Part shown: one piece after another, positions 3,943-55,972 of the stretch
How the letters are laid out: each line of letters begins with the position of its first letter
Numbering within the stretch: the stretch's first letter is position 1
NCBI GenBank assembly: GCA_048538215.1
Contig: JBLYPV010000001.1
Span: forward strand, 11,495 to 75,494
Direction: 5' to 3'
Source of the DNA: Patescibacteria group bacterium
GTDB taxonomy: Bacteria; Patescibacteriota; Minisyncoccia; Phycocordibacterales; GCA-2747955
DNA length: 64,000 bases
Program-made: the position numbers and the translations under genes
The notes under the pieces: model-generated
What the model saw: only the letters and a program-made list of their open reading frames with translations
Told to the model about the DNA's origin: nothing
Database searches by the model: none

Positions 3943-4266
3943 CTACCCATCAAGTGGTGTGGGCATTATCGGCACGAGAGGCCTGGGTGCCTGGCTGATG
4001 CCGAGCCTGTGTAGAGCTTGCTCGGGCGTCCACCCGAGCCCGGCAAGCTCGAGGGCTTTTTTCGCCATTTCCTTGTAGCTCAAGAGCCCAAGCTCTGCCT
4101 CTACATATTGCTCGACCTCGCTCCAGGCGAGCTCAAGAGCCTGCTGTTGGTTTTCAGGGGTCGTTTTGACCTTCGCCCCATCAGCTTGGGGCGAAATCGA
4201 GCCTTGGTAGAGGTGGATTACTTCACCGGAGTCTTTCGTCACGGCACTTTCCTTTCTTTTGCACAA
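3943..4266 (-). CDS. Hypothetical protein, GC-rich composition. The real start is possibly the GTG near 4237.
   Basis: ORF on the minus strand in a locally GC-rich stretch. I judged it more protein-like than the overlapping plus ORF 4018..4311. No recognisable family. Confidence 0.3.
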   Translation of the reverse strand: MCKRKESAVTKDSGEVIHLYQGSISPQADGAKVKTTPENQQQALELAWSEVEQYVEAELGLLSYKEMAKKALELAGLGWTPEQALHRLGISQAPRPLVPIMPTPLDG

Positions 4267-4324
4267 TTAAGGCAAATTATATTTAATATAAATATTTTGT
4301 CAATTTCTTAAAAAATAGAGTATG

Positions 4325-4362
4325 GTAGAAGTTGTCCAAGCTTGGACAACTTCTACCATATT
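4325..4362. terminator. Perfect 16-bp-stem palindrome gtagaagttgtccaag/cttggacaacttctac
   Basis: Seen directly. It lies between 3943..4266(-) and 4433..4876(-). A second hairpin at ~4392-4425 (agcccacg…cgtgggct) is adjacent. Confidence 0.45.
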
Positions 4363-4432: not shown

Positions 4433-4876
4433 TCAATCAATGTCTGGATCGAAGCGATTTGAGTATTCCCACATTTCTTCCCAATCTCCTCTTGGATCAT
4501 AACAAGGCAGATAGGGCTCGTGGTGCAACAAAATCAATTCGATTTCACAAAAGCAATCTGTAGGATGGTAGCTCAGGAGCTCTCCTATGCGATTGCAAAT
4601 TTCCATCACCCCTGATGCAAGGATGACATCAATACTTTTTTGAGGAATATTGAAGTGATAGCGAGCATGTGCATAAGCTGTCATAGTCAAAGCACGAATT
4701 GCTTCGCGTATTTCTCTACGCTTGGCTTCGCGCAAGCTGTATTGGAGACAGGCCTGCCAACAATCTATATCGGGTCCACAGAGGAATTCCCTAATGTATT
4801 GCATAGGCACTATTTGACCAGATCCTTGCCCTTCATAGGGTATATGCATAAAGATCATAATATCCTCCCGGACCAC
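4433..4876 (-). CDS. Hypothetical protein (147 aa)
   Basis: Clean ORF, Cys/His-containing, no family recognised. Confidence 0.4.
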   Translation of the reverse strand: MVREDIMIFMHIPYEGQGSGQIVPMQYIREFLCGPDIDCWQACLQYSLREAKRREIREAIRALTMTAYAHARYHFNIPQKSIDVILASGVMEICNRIGELLSYHPTDCFCEIELILLHHEPYLPCYDPRGDWEEMWEYSNRFDPDID

Positions 4877-44336: not shown

Positions 44337-45434
44337 ATGGATATAGCTATAGGCTTCATTATTGCAATCATAGTGCTTGTATTTGTGCATGAGCTTGGAC
44401 ACTTTCTCTTTGCCAAGTGGGTGGGATGTCGAGTGGATGAATTTTCTGTAGGCTTTCCTCCAGCTCTTTTTTCTCGCACACTTGGGGAGACAAGATATAC
44501 CCTTGGGGCTATTCCCATTGGAGGCTATGTCAAGATTTGGGGAGAAAATGGTAGCGAAGAGGTACAAGAAGACCCAGATAATCCACGCGCCTTATATAAT
44601 CGCCCTCGTTGGGCACAGGCTCTTGTCTTGTTTGGAGGAATTTTATTTAATGTAATTCTAGCGTGGCTTTTATTTAGTATACTTTTTGCTACTGGCATTG
44701 AGGCAAACAGCGAGCGATTTCCAGATGAGCGATTAGCTAATCCAAAAGTGCAAATCACAGGTATTATCGAGGGCTATCCAGCAGCATCTTCTACCTTGAG
44801 TGTAGCAAGTACCATTAATGCAATATATGCAGAAAATGGTGATAGCTTGAGCCCTATTGAGGGGTATCAAGCCGTGCAAGCATTTATTGCCTCACATCCT
44901 CATCAAGTACTTAGTATTACTACTACCAATCAAGCAGGGGAAGTCCTGCAAACATCACTGTCCCCTAAGAGCGAAGGAGGGCGCGCTTTGATTGGTGTAG
45001 AGCTTGCTACCGTAGGCACTATTACTTTGCCCTGGTATCAGGCATTATATGAAGGAGCTAGACTTACCGTAGACCTTACTATAGCCATTTTTAGTTTCTT
45101 AGGAGATTTTCTTGCTGGGCTTTTTACGGGGAGTACTCAGGCAGATAGTATTGCAGGCCCAGTAGGGATTGCTCATTTTGCTGGTGATTCATTTTCGGCT
45201 GGAGCAGGAGAGTTTGCTTGGTTTATAGCCATTCTTTCACTTAACTTGGCGATTTTTAATCTTCTCCCTATTCCAGCCCTTGATGGTGGGCGCTTGGTAC
45301 TTGTGGCGATTGAGTCCGTTATTCGGCGGCCACTTAATCCGCGATGGGCACTATACCTTAATGCAGGTGGGTTTATTTTTTTGATTGGATTGATGGCCTT
45401 GGTGACCATCTTTGATATTTATAAATTATTTTAA
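44337..45434 (+). CDS. rseP: Site-2 protease (RseP/M50 family zinc metalloprotease) with PDZ domain
   Basis: HELGHFLFAK zinc site in TM1, a central PDZ-like segment, a C-terminal LDGG motif. Confidence 0.8.
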   Translation: MDIAIGFIIAIIVLVFVHELGHFLFAKWVGCRVDEFSVGFPPALFSRTLGETRYTLGAIPIGGYVKIWGENGSEEVQEDPDNPRALYNRPRWAQALVLFGGILFNVILAWLLFSILFATGIEANSERFPDERLANPKVQITGIIEGYPAASSTLSVASTINAIYAENGDSLSPIEGYQAVQAFIASHPHQVLSITTTNQAGEVLQTSLSPKSEGGRALIGVELATVGTITLPWYQALYEGARLTVDLTIAIFSFLGDFLAGLFTGSTQADSIAGPVGIAHFAGDSFSAGAGEFAWFIAILSLNLAIFNLLPIPALDGGRLVLVAIESVIRRPLNPRWALYLNAGGFIFLIGLMALVTIFDIYKLF

Positions 45435-45476
45435 AGCCCTCCACTTAGGGACCCGGTCCCTAAGTGGAGGGCTTTG
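45435..45476 (+). terminator. 19-bp perfect-stem hairpin agccctccacttagggacc / ggtccctaagtggagggct
   Basis: Seen directly after the rseP stop, upstream of infA. Confidence 0.55.
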
Positions 45477-49408: not shown

Positions 49409-49452
49409 GATATAAAGAAAAAAGTAGTATTTAGTGTCAGCTGACACTAAAT
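49409..49452. terminator. Perfect 18-bp palindromic hairpin gtagtatttagtgtcagc/gctgacactaaatactac flanked by A/T runs
   Basis: Lies immediately after rpsI. Its stem shares the gtagtatttagtg…taaatactac arms with the hairpin at 16868-16905. Confidence 0.65.
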
Positions 49453-49544
49453 ACTACTTTTTTCTTTGTGCAAAAAATTATTTTAAGAAGTATTACAAGT
49501 AACAACTAGTCGAAATGAAAACTACCTTTTGGTAGTTTTCTTTG

Positions 49545-52492: not shown

Positions 52493-53101
52493 ATGGATGA
52501 TAGAGAGATATTAGAGGAAGTAGCACGCATTAAATACCTTTATAAAATGAAGGGGGTATTTCGCTATGGCCAAGATCGTGACCCTTGGCAACGAGCTGAA
52601 TCAAATGCAGAACACTTGTATGGGATGATGATCTTAGTAAATTATTTTCTCCCTCTTGAAGATCAAGAAGCTAAGCTTGATCGACAAAGGATTTTTGATC
52701 TAATTCTCGTGCATGATATTGATGAGATAGAAAATGGTGATATTATCAGCTACAAAAAAACAGAAAAAGATAGGGAACAAGAGCGATTGGCTTTACAAGT
52801 CGCTCTAGAAAAAGTACCGAGTAATCTAGCAATTGATATTAAAGCGCTTTCGAATGAATATGAAGCACAAGATACTCCCGAAGCACGATTTACCAAGGCG
52901 ATTGACAAAATAGAGCCTCTATTTGAAGTATTTGATAAGTATGGCAAGCACATAATGGTCGCAAATAAAACTACTTACGAGCAGGCGATGCAGGACAAAG
53001 AAGAGTATTTAGAAAATTATCCTGTGATGATGAAGTATTTACACGTTTTGGCTCAAGAGATGCGCTCACGAGGCTATTTTTATGACAAGAGTAATACATA
53101 A
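52493..53101 (+). CDS. HD-domain phosphohydrolase (YfbR-like 5'-deoxynucleotidase family)
   Basis: H…HD metal motif (LILVHDIDEIENGD) in a ~200-aa HD_3-type protein. Confidence 0.6.
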   Translation: MDDREILEEVARIKYLYKMKGVFRYGQDRDPWQRAESNAEHLYGMMILVNYFLPLEDQEAKLDRQRIFDLILVHDIDEIENGDIISYKKTEKDREQERLALQVALEKVPSNLAIDIKALSNEYEAQDTPEARFTKAIDKIEPLFEVFDKYGKHIMVANKTTYEQAMQDKEEYLENYPVMMKYLHVLAQEMRSRGYFYDKSNT

Positions 53102-53426
53102 ACAATTTGGGCCAAGCTTTGCCGAGCGGGTATTGCAAGGGGCGCTTGCGATACCTTTTGGGAGAGTATGCACCTATGGACACTTGGCACGCCAAGCTGG
53201 GGGTAGTGGGCAGGCAGCACGGAGCGTGAGCGCCATTTTGGCAAAATATGAACAGAAAAATTCTGATCTAGATATTCCCTGGCATCGAATAGTGTATGCT
53301 GATGGAAGAGTGTGGCTTGGAGAGAAAGAAAAGATACGTCGTAAGCAGTATAAGGCAGAGGGAATTGAGATAGATAAAAAAGGAAAGATTATTAATTTTT
53401 ATGATATTTTATTTACTTTTGATTGA
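53082..53426 (+). CDS. Alkyltransferase-like (ATL) protein, an MGMT DNA-binding domain with Trp in place of the acceptor Cys
   Basis: …DIPWHRIVYADGRV… carries the PWHR motif where O6-alkylguanine transferases have PCHR. The helix-turn-helix region (FGRVCTYGHLARQAG) is present. Confidence 0.7.
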   Translation: MTRVIHKQFGPSFAERVLQGALAIPFGRVCTYGHLARQAGGSGQAARSVSAILAKYEQKNSDLDIPWHRIVYADGRVWLGEKEKIRRKQYKAEGIEIDKKGKIINFYDILFTFD

Positions 53427-53476
53427 GAAGTGATATAGTATTTTTTAATCGCACTTAAAAAAGAAGAGGTGATATT

Positions 53477-54133
53477 ATGTTTCATAGACATAGTCTGCCA
53501 GACAGAGCTACTGTCTTGAGTACAGTGGAAAGTTTGCGTAATTTATATGCTCTTAGGCGAGTTGTTCGTTGGGGGAATAATCGTCTTGAATCTGTCAGGA
53601 TTGAGTCAGTAACAGAGCACACATTCAATACTTCACCATTAGCAGACCTTTTTTATCATCTTGATCCGGAGGTACAAGGGATTGATTTGGGACGAGTGCA
53701 TACCTTGCTTCGGTATCATGATTTTGCTGAAGTTGGAGCAGAGGGGGACATCCCACAAACAAAAAAGAATGATGCTCTTGAGCTCTCGTCTCTTGATGAG
53801 CTAGAAAGAATTATGGCTAATCATCCCCTACCGCTTCGCAAGTATATTAGAGAGGCAGTAGAAGAATTTGATAAAGCAGAAAGCAGAGAAGCACAATTTG
53901 CCTTAGCCTGTGACAAGCTAGAACCAAGTTTTGAGCTTTATTTTCATGGGGTCGAACGAGTGCTCCCACCTATGTCGCGGTGTATACCAGAAAATGCATG
54001 GCATGGTTGGACAAGTACCGCTCGTATTCGTGCAACAGGAAAATTTCCAGTGATGCATCATTATGGAAACATTCTTGCCCAGGAAATTGAGAAAAAAATA
54101 GAAGCTTATCGCCGGTCTTTTGCAGTAGAGTAG
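53477..54133 (+). CDS. HD-domain phosphohydrolase, paralog of 52493..53101
   Basis: LLRYHDFAEVGAEGD HD motif and a similar size. It flanks the ATL gene on the other side. Confidence 0.55.
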   Translation: MFHRHSLPDRATVLSTVESLRNLYALRRVVRWGNNRLESVRIESVTEHTFNTSPLADLFYHLDPEVQGIDLGRVHTLLRYHDFAEVGAEGDIPQTKKNDALELSSLDELERIMANHPLPLRKYIREAVEEFDKAESREAQFALACDKLEPSFELYFHGVERVLPPMSRCIPENAWHGWTSTARIRATGKFPVMHHYGNILAQEIEKKIEAYRRSFAVE

Positions 54134-54290
54134 CCCCAGCCGCTCTATAGCTGAAGAAGATCATTAATGTGCACGTAAAGTTGTCGCCCGGGGTTTGTTT
54201 AGAATTCCGGGCGTTTTTTGATATATTTTCTCGATGTATTAATTTTTAATGTATTAATCCTATAATCAATATTTTATTTTTCGTAAATTC

Positions 54291-54330
54291 AATTCTTCAC
54301 TAGTGCACGGCCGTGCACTAGTGAAGAATT
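54291..54330. promoter_or_regulatory. 40-bp perfect palindrome aattcttcactagtgcacgg|ccgtgcactagtgaagaatt
   Basis: Seen directly. The core cactagtgcacggccgtgcactagtg is repeated exactly at 54944-54969. It overlaps the annotated 5' end of the downstream regulator ORF. Confidence 0.7.
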
Positions 54331-54335
54331 ATGTT

Positions 54336-54917
54336 ATGGTTGAATATATGGAATCAAGACGTATACAAGAAATAAAATTGGAACGGCTAGGAGACCGAGC
54401 ACTAGCACTTCTGAGTGTATTTATAAAAGGTTCTCTAATAGCCTCAGCAGAAGTTGCAGATTTTGCATTTGAAGTGTTTCGATATAAATCAATGAATGAG
54501 GTAGTGTATCCATCCGAAGTTAAGGCTATTACTGATAGATTAAAACGATCTGGGCTCATAAGTGGGAATGATAAATCTGGCTATAAGATTACTAAGCGTG
54601 GACATTGGGAGCTTGCTCGTCATCGCTATAAAGATAATCCTGAAAATCATATTCCAGAAAAATGGGATAGAAAATGGCGAGTAGTAATATTTGATGTTCC
54701 CGAAATGGCACATAAATATCGTGATATTTTACGTCGGGCAATAGCTGGATATGGGATGTATCAGCTTCAGCAAAGCGTGTGGGTATATCCATATCGATGC
54801 GAAGAATTTATTCGTTCGATCAAAGAGGATATTGGATTTAAATCAGAAGTATTATATATGTTGGTAGATAAAATAGACCATCAAAAAGAATTAGAACGAG
54901 AATTTAATTTACTATAG
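54336..54917 (+). CDS. PaaX-like transcriptional regulator (wHTH N-domain + WDxKW middle domain). The start is at 54336 or 54348.
   Basis: N-terminal winged-helix-like region. The WDRKWRVVIFDVPEMAHKYRDILRRAIAGYGMYQLQQSVWVYP segment parallels the PaaX WDGKWLLLL…QGFG… middle domain, recalled from memory. The ORF-track start at 54303 lies inside the palindrome and is unlikely. Confidence 0.5.
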   Translation: MVEYMESRRIQEIKLERLGDRALALLSVFIKGSLIASAEVADFAFEVFRYKSMNEVVYPSEVKAITDRLKRSGLISGNDKSGYKITKRGHWELARHRYKDNPENHIPEKWDRKWRVVIFDVPEMAHKYRDILRRAIAGYGMYQLQQSVWVYPYRCEEFIRSIKEDIGFKSEVLYMLVDKIDHQKELEREFNLL

Positions 54918-54939
54918 GGACGGAGGCAAAATAAAATAT

Positions 54940-54973
54940 TCCCCACTAGTGCACGGCCGTGCACTAGTGGGGA
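54940..54973. promoter_or_regulatory. Second copy of the palindrome (tccccactagtgcacggccgtgcactagtgggga)
   Basis: The 26-bp core is identical to that at 54291-54330. The outer arms differ (ttcttc/gaagaa versus cccc/gggg) but stay self-complementary. Confidence 0.7.
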
Positions 54974-55084
54974 GGGTGTCTTAGGGGTGATTGTGAGTGA
55001 TTATATAGGAGTTAGGCTTATAAATATTATGATTCTTTGGGGAGATTTTGATATACTGGATATATAGTATTAAGAGCAGATGAT

Positions 55085-55972
55085 ATGGAATTAAACCTTC
55101 GTAGTAAAAAAGAAATTCAATTGGATATTGATGCAGTCGAGGCTCAAATGGGCAGCCCAGATTTTTGGGCTGAGCCTAGTCGAGCACAAGAGGTAATCGC
55201 CCAACTTGAAGGACTTAAGGCAGAGCTTGAGACGGGTGACAGATATGGAGTGGGGCCTGCTAGCGTATCTATCTATGCAGGAGCAGGGGGAGAAGATAGT
55301 GAAGATTTTGTACGAATTCTCTCACAGATGTATCAGGGATTTGCCGACAAAGAGGGCTATAAAATAGATTTTCTTGATGAAGCTTCTAACGATACCAATG
55401 GCTATAAGCGAATTGCTTTCAAAATCAGTGGCTTAGGGGCATATGGCAAGCTCAAGGGGGAAGACGGAGTGCATCGCTTGGTACGCAAAAGTCCTTTTAA
55501 TGCTAAATCAAAGCGACATACTTCGTTTGCACTTGTAGATATTGATCCAGAGATTAAAGCGCAAGAATTCTCTCTTGATGAATCAGAGCTTGAAATAAGC
55601 TATACCAAATCGGGTGGGGCTGGCGGACAAAATGTAAACAAGCGTGAGACCGCTGTGCGTATTACACATCCCAAAACAGGTATTTCTGCGCATGTATCAT
55701 CTGAACGTTCTCAGCATCAGAACAAAGAGCTTGCTCTCGAGCTTATTCGTGCCAAGCTTTATAAAAAGCATCTTGGGGATGAAGAAAAGCGACTGCTCGG
55801 CCATACACCAGAAGAACAAATTCGTATTGAATGGGGTAATCAGATCAGAAGCTATATCTTTGATCCTTATCAGATGATTAAGGATCATCGGCTTGGCATA
55901 GATGTGCATCAGATTGATAAAGTATTAGGTGGTGATTTGCATTATTTTTATCAAGCCATCAAGCAAGAATAA
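55085..55972 (+). CDS. prfB: Peptide chain release factor 2 (compact, 295 aa, no programmed frameshift)
   Basis: SPF tripeptide (LVRKSPFNAK), GGQ (SGGAGGQNVNKRETAVRITH). It aligns to E. coli RF2 but lacks ~25 N-terminal aa and ~45 aa of domain 1. There is no CUU UGA site upstream. Confidence 0.8.
   Translation: MELNLRSKKEIQLDIDAVEAQMGSPDFWAEPSRAQEVIAQLEGLKAELETGDRYGVGPASVSIYAGAGGEDSEDFVRILSQMYQGFADKEGYKIDFLDEASNDTNGYKRIAFKISGLGAYGKLKGEDGVHRLVRKSPFNAKSKRHTSFALVDIDPEIKAQEFSLDESELEISYTKSGGAGGQNVNKRETAVRITHPKTGISAHVSSERSQHQNKELALELIRAKLYKKHLGDEEKRLLGHTPEEQIRIEWGNQIRSYIFDPYQMIKDHRLGIDVHQIDKVLGGDLHYFYQAIKQE

Follow-up and report, generated by a model that had tools for sequence, protein, structure and literature searches.

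Paired palindromes around a PaaX-like gene family of Patescibacteria as predicted operators of the putative repressor encoded between them

Bacterial repression can involve two operators, as in the lac (O1/O2), gal (OE/OI) and deo systems, which are dual-operator looping systems. In insertion sequences, the transposase binds the terminal repeats and the promoter is found in the left end. The Cas2 dimer lies along duplex DNA. The repressor PaaX of Escherichia coli binds TGATTC(N27)GAATCA, a site of 39 base pairs (bp), and represses its own promoter, Px, by hindering RNA polymerase; its C-terminal domain has been linked to phenylacetyl-CoA binding (reviewed in PMC9493321). Here, we analysed 64 kilobases (kb) of a Patescibacteria genome (contig JBLYPV010000001.1; the whole stretch is termed the window), in which a gene for a PaaX-like protein stands between two long palindromes that share an identical core. 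The palindromes are probably double-stranded DNA operators of the PaaX-type repressor encoded between them. Patescibacteria, also known as candidate phyla radiation bacteria, have tiny genomes, and their gene regulation is barely known. From sequence alone, a binding site, a target (the gene's own transcription) and a binding geometry can be predicted for each member of this family.

The features that carry the argument are given below, numbered from the first letter of the window.

54291 to 54330, no strand: upstream perfect palindrome of 40 bp with arms of 20 nucleotides (nt), AATTCTTCACTAGTGCACGG and CCGTGCACTAGTGAAGAATT, and no spacer (repeat finder); putative operator
54298 to 54323, no strand: first copy of the 26-bp core (exact match search)
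54324 to 54329, plus strand: AAGAAT, a hexamer resembling a -10 box in the right outer arm, 6 nt 5' of the ATG; candidate promoter element, possibly of a leaderless transcript
54336 to 54917, plus strand: PaaX-like gene, 193 amino acids, with a winged helix-turn-helix and a PaaX_M (Cas2-like) domain
54937 to 54976: the family's 40-bp frame of the downstream element
54940 to 54973, no strand: downstream perfect palindrome of 34 bp with 17-nt arms, TCCCCACTAGTGCACGG and CCGTGCACTAGTGGGGA (repeat finder); putative second operator
54944 to 54969, no strand: second copy of the 26-bp core (exact match search)

The 26-mer CACTAGTGCACGGCCGTGCACTAGTG was found exactly twice in the window. The original prediction had located the second copy correctly but placed the first one 2 nt away, at 54296–54321; both perfect palindromes that it described, of 40 and 34 bp, were recovered by the repeat finder. 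No match to the 26-mer occurred in dinucleotide shuffles and no further match was present in the window at up to three mismatches, the nearest sequence in a looser scan of the whole window differing from it at 8 of 26 positions. The core CACGGCCGTG was likewise confined to these two places within the window. A scan of a genome contig collection that does not hold the source genome, performed with AGTGCACGGCCGTGCACT, returned only five chance matches in unrelated taxa. The upstream palindrome spans positions -45 to -6 relative to the ATG at 54336, from which it is separated by 5 nt; this ATG is the annotated start, and not the GTG at 54303 within the palindrome. The downstream palindrome begins 22 nt past the stop codon and ends 111 nt short of the ATG of prfB (55085). 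The 26-mer at 54298–54323 also consists of nested short palindromes that match classical restriction sites (ACTAGT, GTGCAC, GGCC, GTGCAC and ACTAGT).

The arrangement is a property of the gene family. A metagenome scan with an alignment of 12 proteins yielded more than 591 relatives, of which 80 loci, 79 of them unique (designated L001 onwards), were kept. At each locus, the most palindromic 40-mer 5' of the start and the one 3' of the stop were chosen blind to their mutual similarity. The two palindromes of one locus were identical at 22 or more of 40 positions in 60 of 79 loci (76%), compared with 10.7% for mismatched loci, and at 28 or more positions in 54 of 79 (68%), compared with 1.6% for different loci. 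Copies agreed at a median of 32/40 positions when taken from one locus and 16/40 when taken from different loci, and the core was also present in both flanks of six loci that had fallen below a score threshold (L027, L028, L038, L045, L050 and L080). The sites pair with the gene across the family and track its lineage. The closest homologues (69%, 56% and 50% identical) share the neighbourhood of the window gene, in which murD-murC and genes of the HD-domain and MGMT-like types precede the PaaX-like gene and prfB-ftsE-ftsX-pyrG follow it, in some cases after a further HD-domain gene; each is bracketed by two palindromes. They have the centre CACGGCCGTG in common (AAACGGTCGTG in L001), and the arms vary by genome. 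A 41%-identical homologue showed the same arrangement in an unrelated context, among ATP synthase and methylase genes, with the downstream copy overlapping the end of the open reading frame (ORF). The recurrence of the layout in differing genomic contexts associates it with the gene and not with its neighbours.

The family is large, with 953 clusters at 50% identity (E ≤ 1e-30), and nearly all of the best 150 matches listed were 170–260 residues long. Within the 3.5–12 kb available around the relatives, no third copy of the element was present in any locus except L021, which holds two elements upstream (1356–1395 and 1426–1465, 70 bp apart) and one downstream (2015–2054). In L004 (6574–6613) and the class of loci with TTACCTAAC (L043, L044, L051, L058, L070, L071 and L077), the downstream element lies within the 3' end of the ORF, where it begins 33 nt upstream of the last base of the stop codon and encodes an extra C-terminal tail (..LPNSNGRKS). 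A literature search, in which relevance was judged from title and abstract, found no paper describing this layout around a PaaX-like or Cas2-like winged-helix protein, and the family-wide architecture has apparently not been described previously.

These results make it extremely improbable that the palindromes are generic dispersed elements of the repetitive extragenic palindromic type, or that they arose by chance and have nothing to do with the gene. In 64 kb, neither the 26-mer nor its half-sites were found anywhere but on the two sides of this gene, and each relative has its own version at the same two positions, two per locus. The window does hold other long perfect palindromes (4321–4360, 49415–49466 and 45433–45475), as such an explanation would have it, but these have no sequence in common with the PaaX-like element. 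The first of them is a 40-bp perfect palindrome with no spacer (TATGGTAGAAGTTGTCCAAG and CTTGGACAACTTCTACCATA), situated between the minus-strand ORFs 3943–4266 and 4433–4876; it is unrelated in sequence and no T-tract follows it. The palindrome at 49415–49466 is perfect over 52 bp, is flanked by an A-run and a T-run and lies between rpsI and a minus-strand transfer RNA gene; it resembles a bidirectional terminator, although one that lacks a loop and whose AT-rich stem is unusually long. The hairpin at 45433–45475 has GC-rich arms of 21 nt (AAAGCCCTCCACTTAGGGACC g GGTCCCTAAGTGGAGGGCTTT) and lies between an RseP-like protease gene and infA.

The anatomy of the element was derived from 60 unique loci, which provide 120 centres. 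A C three positions to the left and a G three positions to the right of the centre were invariant in both copies of all 60 loci, and the consensus of the centre was C-[G/T]-R:Y-[C/A]-G, where the colon marks the axis of symmetry. CTATAG was the most frequent centre (37), followed by CGGTCG (26), CGGCCG (17), CGACCG (15) and CGATCG (12). Chimeric centres such as CGA:TAG and CTA:TCG were also found, and the non-complementary central steps G:T and A:C were about as frequent as G:C and A:T. The half-sites thus vary independently, as expected of a symmetric dimer on duplex DNA. Complementarity between the arms was limited to 46–73% of elements at positions 5–9 and reached 75–100% at positions 10–19, the outer arms. 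Mismatches showed no strand bias, with 42 G·T against 48 A·C in the upstream copies and 51 against 53 in the downstream copies, and the majority belonged to neither type (154 upstream and 141 downstream). The symmetry of the element is therefore of the double-stranded DNA type, and its anatomy fits a putative protein dimer bound to duplex DNA and not a conserved RNA or single-strand hairpin.

The outer arms of the two copies in the window differ in the manner that had been described, and the argument that they are compensatory comes down to two base pairs. These, at positions 14 and 15 from the centre (T-A to C-G), are the only ones truly compensated between the copies; positions 16–17 are common to both copies, and the downstream copy is unpaired at 18–20. 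Compensated double changes between copies made up 33 of 115 across the family, close to the one-third expected by chance.

This frequency bears on the possibility that the palindromes act in RNA, as stem-loops of which one lies at either end of the regulator's messenger RNA, serving as stabilisers, as the terminator or insulator hairpins suggested at the outset, or as a protein-bound translational switch. We consider this unlikely. RNA folding of both copies was very stable (-31.7 kcal/mol with a z-score of -10.4, and -30.7 kcal/mol with a z-score of -4.9), the copies in the window are perfect palindromes with two compensated pairs, and the downstream copy would fall in the 3' untranslated region; moreover, the long perfect palindrome at 49415–49466 stands in a terminator-like setting. 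However, the poorly paired middle of the stem (positions 5–9), the wobble pair being no commoner than A·C, and the chance level of compensation are not what a conserved stem would leave behind. T-runs were not enriched 3' of the downstream copies across the family, and the copy in the window is followed on the plus strand by GGGTGTC; a terminator scanner called this palindrome on the minus strand only. The likely -10 box lies within the upstream copy, which directly adjoins the ATG and may therefore be untranscribed, and an Rfam search of the region gave nothing above threshold. An ordinary terminator of this genome, listed below with the likely promoter box of prfB as context for the locus, looks unlike the palindromes.

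54185 to 54213, plus strand: intrinsic terminator of the upstream HD-domain gene, a GC stem with a T-run
55052 to 55057, plus strand: TATACT in GATATACT, likely -10 box of prfB, about 79 nt 3' of the second palindrome

The protein encoded between the sites is identical to NCBI ACKKL4_00365, from a contig of 622,806 bp in a Patescibacteria metagenome-assembled genome. Its designation as PaaX-like, proposed in the original prediction, was confirmed by a match of residues 109–185 to the Pfam family PaaX_M (PF20803, "PaaX central Cas2-like domain") at E=3.6e-19, and PF20803 was present in all homologues. In the AlphaFold2 model, a winged helix (residues 19–85, three helices and a two-strand wing) is followed by a linker helix and a beta-alpha-beta-beta-alpha-beta domain (residues 114–177). 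Foldseek searches with this model gave matches, all weak, to Rv0674 (3kfw), E. coli PaaX (8a39), winged helices of the MarR and DtxR types, and the Cas2 structures 5zyf, 8ia4 and 3exc. A profile of 59 sequences matched E. coli PaaX (8a39) in the PDB at E=4.7e-4, with an alignment running from the recognition helix through WDxKW; a 12-sequence profile gave marginal matches only, and the C-terminal domain searched against the PDB as one sequence gave none. No PaaX C-terminal domain was detected by Pfam; the protein stops at residue 193, directly after the Cas2-like domain, and members of the family have about 180–200 residues.

The Cas2-type motifs V(V/I)FD(I/V) and RLQxSVW are kept in the family. 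D120, at the end of the first strand of the ferredoxin-like Cas2 fold, was invariant in an alignment of 59 sequences and corresponds to the Asp in VVYDV of SSO8090; the corresponding stretch reads LLLSE in E. coli PaaX and IVTS in Rv0674. The mean pairwise difference within the family was 69% in the N-terminal half and 46% in the C-terminal half. Divergence of the outer arms showed a partial rank correlation of 0.27 with the winged-helix region and 0.10 with the Cas2-like region, whereas divergence of the core tracked the Cas2-like region (0.16) more than the winged-helix region (0.09). These values are suggestive only of arms that may co-diverge with the winged helix and a core that may co-diverge with the Cas2-like domain.

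The position of the upstream element relative to the gene is informative as well. In 25 of 60 loci, it reaches the ATG or overlaps it. The ATG occupies positions 18–20 of the right arm in 19 loci, and in these a TAnnnT sequence could be sought at positions 6–11 of that arm, that is, 6 nt 5' of the ATG; a -10-like box was present there in 12 of 19 upstream copies compared with 4 of 19 downstream copies. The boxes 6 nt before the ATG read TAAGGT in L001, TACTAT in L002, TAATAT in L003 and AAGAAT in the window. We infer that the core promoter lies under the upstream element, and the transcript of the PaaX-like gene may be leaderless.

The downstream element starts between 33 nt before and about 30 nt after the stop codon in most loci, and the centre-to-centre distance was 571–733 bp in all loci but one (398 bp). 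The nearest downstream gene was convergent in 26 of 53 loci and, in relatives, is an HD-domain gene or an unrelated gene. As the neighbour is so often convergent, the downstream site is as a rule not an operator at the promoter of the next gene, and the presence of prfB is incidental. The suggestion that the downstream copy controls prfB was consequently dropped, the site in the window also ending well upstream of the likely prfB -10 box. prfB as a regulated target was rejected on account of the differing downstream genes and their convergent orientation in about half of the loci. The GATATACT motif also occurs 5' of the downstream gene in L001 and L094. prfB itself (55085–55972) is an uninterrupted ORF of 295 codons that encodes a short RF2-like protein annotated as "PCRF domain-containing", and its Pfam match covers the second half of the PCRF model only (91–194 of 194).

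Of the roles that were first put forward for the pair, autoregulation from two operators is the best supported, given the family-wide layout and the agreement with the E. coli PaaX operator in size and geometry. Three relatives in which the gene and both palindromes are missing together (L093, L096 and L097, described below) are also in line with it. The proposed protein is a minimal PaaX-type repressor, consisting of an N-terminal winged helix and a Cas2-like dimerisation domain, whose dimer would cover about 40 bp. Its two winged helices would read the lineage-specific outer arms (positions 10–19 from the centre), and the Cas2-like dimer would sit over the conserved centre, C-[G/T]-R:Y-[C/A]-G, a placement proposed by analogy with the Cas2 dimer along duplex DNA. 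Outer arms with the spacing of a PaaX site would explain why the operator is so long. The upstream site is predicted to cover the core promoter up to the start codon, so that binding would shut off transcription of the repressor's own gene. The downstream site would most likely cooperate with the upstream one by looping the gene of about 630 bp; alternatively, it may serve as a protein roadblock against convergent or read-through transcription.

Several observations weigh against this autorepressor with paired operators. No further site was present in the 64-kb window or in the 3.5–12 kb around the relatives, and it is odd for a regulator to control nothing but itself; why it would keep two strong sites flanking its gene and no others in the stretches examined is a puzzle. 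The centre-to-centre distances displayed no detectable helical phasing. Perfect 20/20 palindromes were over-represented, with 11 among about 150 elements where the pairing frequencies of the single positions predict about 0.6, and compensated changes between copies were seen in the window, L003, L039 and L066. A plain sequence read-out does not require either of these. The AlphaFold2 model has a mean predicted local distance difference test score of 69.5, which is of moderate confidence only. The Cas2 catalytic-type Asp is kept in this family and absent from E. coli PaaX, and its retention hints at a role beyond repression. The suggestion of a leaderless transcript is weakened by the fact that TAnnnT boxes are common and Shine-Dalgarno sequences rare throughout the genome: among the 46 ORFs of at least 150 codons in the window, 19 have TAnnnT 5–8 nt before the ATG and four have a strong Shine-Dalgarno sequence (GGAG, GAGG or AGGA). 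Initiation that is leaderless or independent of Shine-Dalgarno sequences may be common in the source genome.

The retained Asp also enters another explanation, in which the site-gene-site unit of about 0.68 kb is a small selfish or mobile cassette. Its protein would recognise, and perhaps cut or recombine, its own terminal palindromes, in the manner of an insertion sequence with the promoter in its left end. To find relatives with or without the unit, prfB was used as a handle. In L093, L096 and L097, whose prfB is 72–76% identical, the murC to prfB synteny is kept without the gene and without palindromes of the family type. The empty-site comparison that had been called for therefore showed that the gene and its palindromes are gained or lost as a unit, as a cassette would be. 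The sites also bracket the ORF tightly, the upstream one at the ATG and the downstream one near the stop codon, sometimes encoding the C-terminus, and the Asp motif around D120 is kept here and missing in true PaaX. However, no target-site duplications were found, the longest word common to the outer flanks being distributed as in mismatched loci, and no transposase or recombinase fold was detected by Pfam or fold search. The unit is present once in 64 kb, with no paralogue in the window, and the other loci have two sites each, L021 (three) being the sole exception.

The surroundings of the unit point in both directions. An HD-domain gene stands between the palindrome and prfB in L002–L003 and L094–L095, whereas in the window and in L001 prfB directly follows the downstream palindrome and a different HD paralogue lies upstream. 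Three paralogue groups make up the HD-domain genes near the unit, and the order of these genes around it varies by genome. L025 and L049 have matching flanks on opposite sides, right in the former and left in the latter, some units that are 73–77% identical in nucleotide sequence have no common flanks, and L094 has a palindrome of the window type but a prfB nearer to that of L001 (91%) than to that of the window (83%). On the other hand, the murC to prfB synteny holds between genomes whose proteins are only 50–69% identical. Among pairs of units at 75–86% nucleotide identity, most were syntenic on at least one side, few on none, and one had a neighbour on the opposite side. A mobile cassette is thus an improbable explanation; of the original suggestion, presence or absence as a unit stood, whereas duplications, extra copies within the stretches examined and a general loss of synteny were not observed, and mobility is a weak reading that is not the best one.

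Two side observations concern this region. At 52493–54133 and in L001–L003 and L093–L097, YfbR-like HD paralogues (the three groups) and an MGMT-like DNA-binding-domain gene lie between murC and prfB, and their number and order vary. The metagenome contigs L094 (1–22) and L095 (1–26) begin exactly within the palindrome and continue with the HD-domain gene and prfB; L094 (prfB 83% identical) starts with the core of the window, AGTGCACGGCCGTGCACTAGTG, and L095 (78%) with its own variant. Such contig starts are expected if assemblers break at a two-copy repeat.

A related proposal is that the unit is an autonomous DNA element and not a cellular regulator, in which a protein with the metal-binding Asp of Cas2 would act enzymatically on the palindromes through nicking, recombination, or gain and loss of the cassette. 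We regard this as quite doubtful. Were it true, the element would be an unrecognised Cas2-derived selfish module and might connect Cas2, palindromic repeats and PaaX-type regulators in evolution.

The predicted operators and their repressor can finally be set beside the systems introduced above. The closest is PaaX of E. coli and Pseudomonas, which acts at the Pa, Pz and Px promoters. Both proteins consist of an N-terminal winged helix followed by PaaX_M, and both systems have a long symmetric operator, 39 bp there and 40 bp here, a comparison of geometry only. They differ in that the present protein has 193 residues compared with 316, that the C-terminal domain is found only in PaaX, and that the Cas2-type Asp and RLQxSVW are kept here, PaaX being without both. 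The putative operator described here further has a conserved palindromic centre, its two copies bracket the gene of the protein itself, and the host belongs to the Patescibacteria. No paa genes were found nearby; the neighbours are murC, HD-domain and MGMT-like genes, prfB, ftsE, ftsX and pyrG, and other relatives lie in unrelated contexts. As it lacks both the C-terminal domain and a paa gene context, we call the protein PaaX-like in its proposed mechanism and not a PaaX orthologue.

The lac, gal and deo repressors resemble the present system in having two similar operators, one of them at the promoter and the other hundreds of bp further downstream, which could cooperate through a DNA loop. 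In contrast to these, the loop here would enclose only the repressor's own gene, and the spacing shows no helical phasing; we know of no oligomerisation of this protein beyond a dimer. Insertion sequences share the compact order of site, ORF and site, in which the left site overlaps the promoter and the right one lies against or across the stop codon. Here, however, each end is itself palindromic, no target-site duplications, multiple copies or transposase fold were found in the stretches examined, and the loci are largely syntenic. With regard to Cas2, no cas1 or other cas genes were present among the called genes of the window region and of L001–L007, no dedicated scan for clustered regularly interspaced short palindromic repeats (CRISPR) having been made. 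The C-terminal domain of the present protein shares with Cas2 and VapD the beta-alpha-beta-beta-alpha-beta fold as well as two motifs, [FY]D[IV] and RxQxS[VA][FW]; unlike in those proteins, it is fused to a winged helix, and two repeats stand around its gene in place of a CRISPR array. The Cas2 signature residues that this family keeps, and that are missing from canonical PaaX, are relevant to the recruitment of the Cas2 fold to DNA binding.

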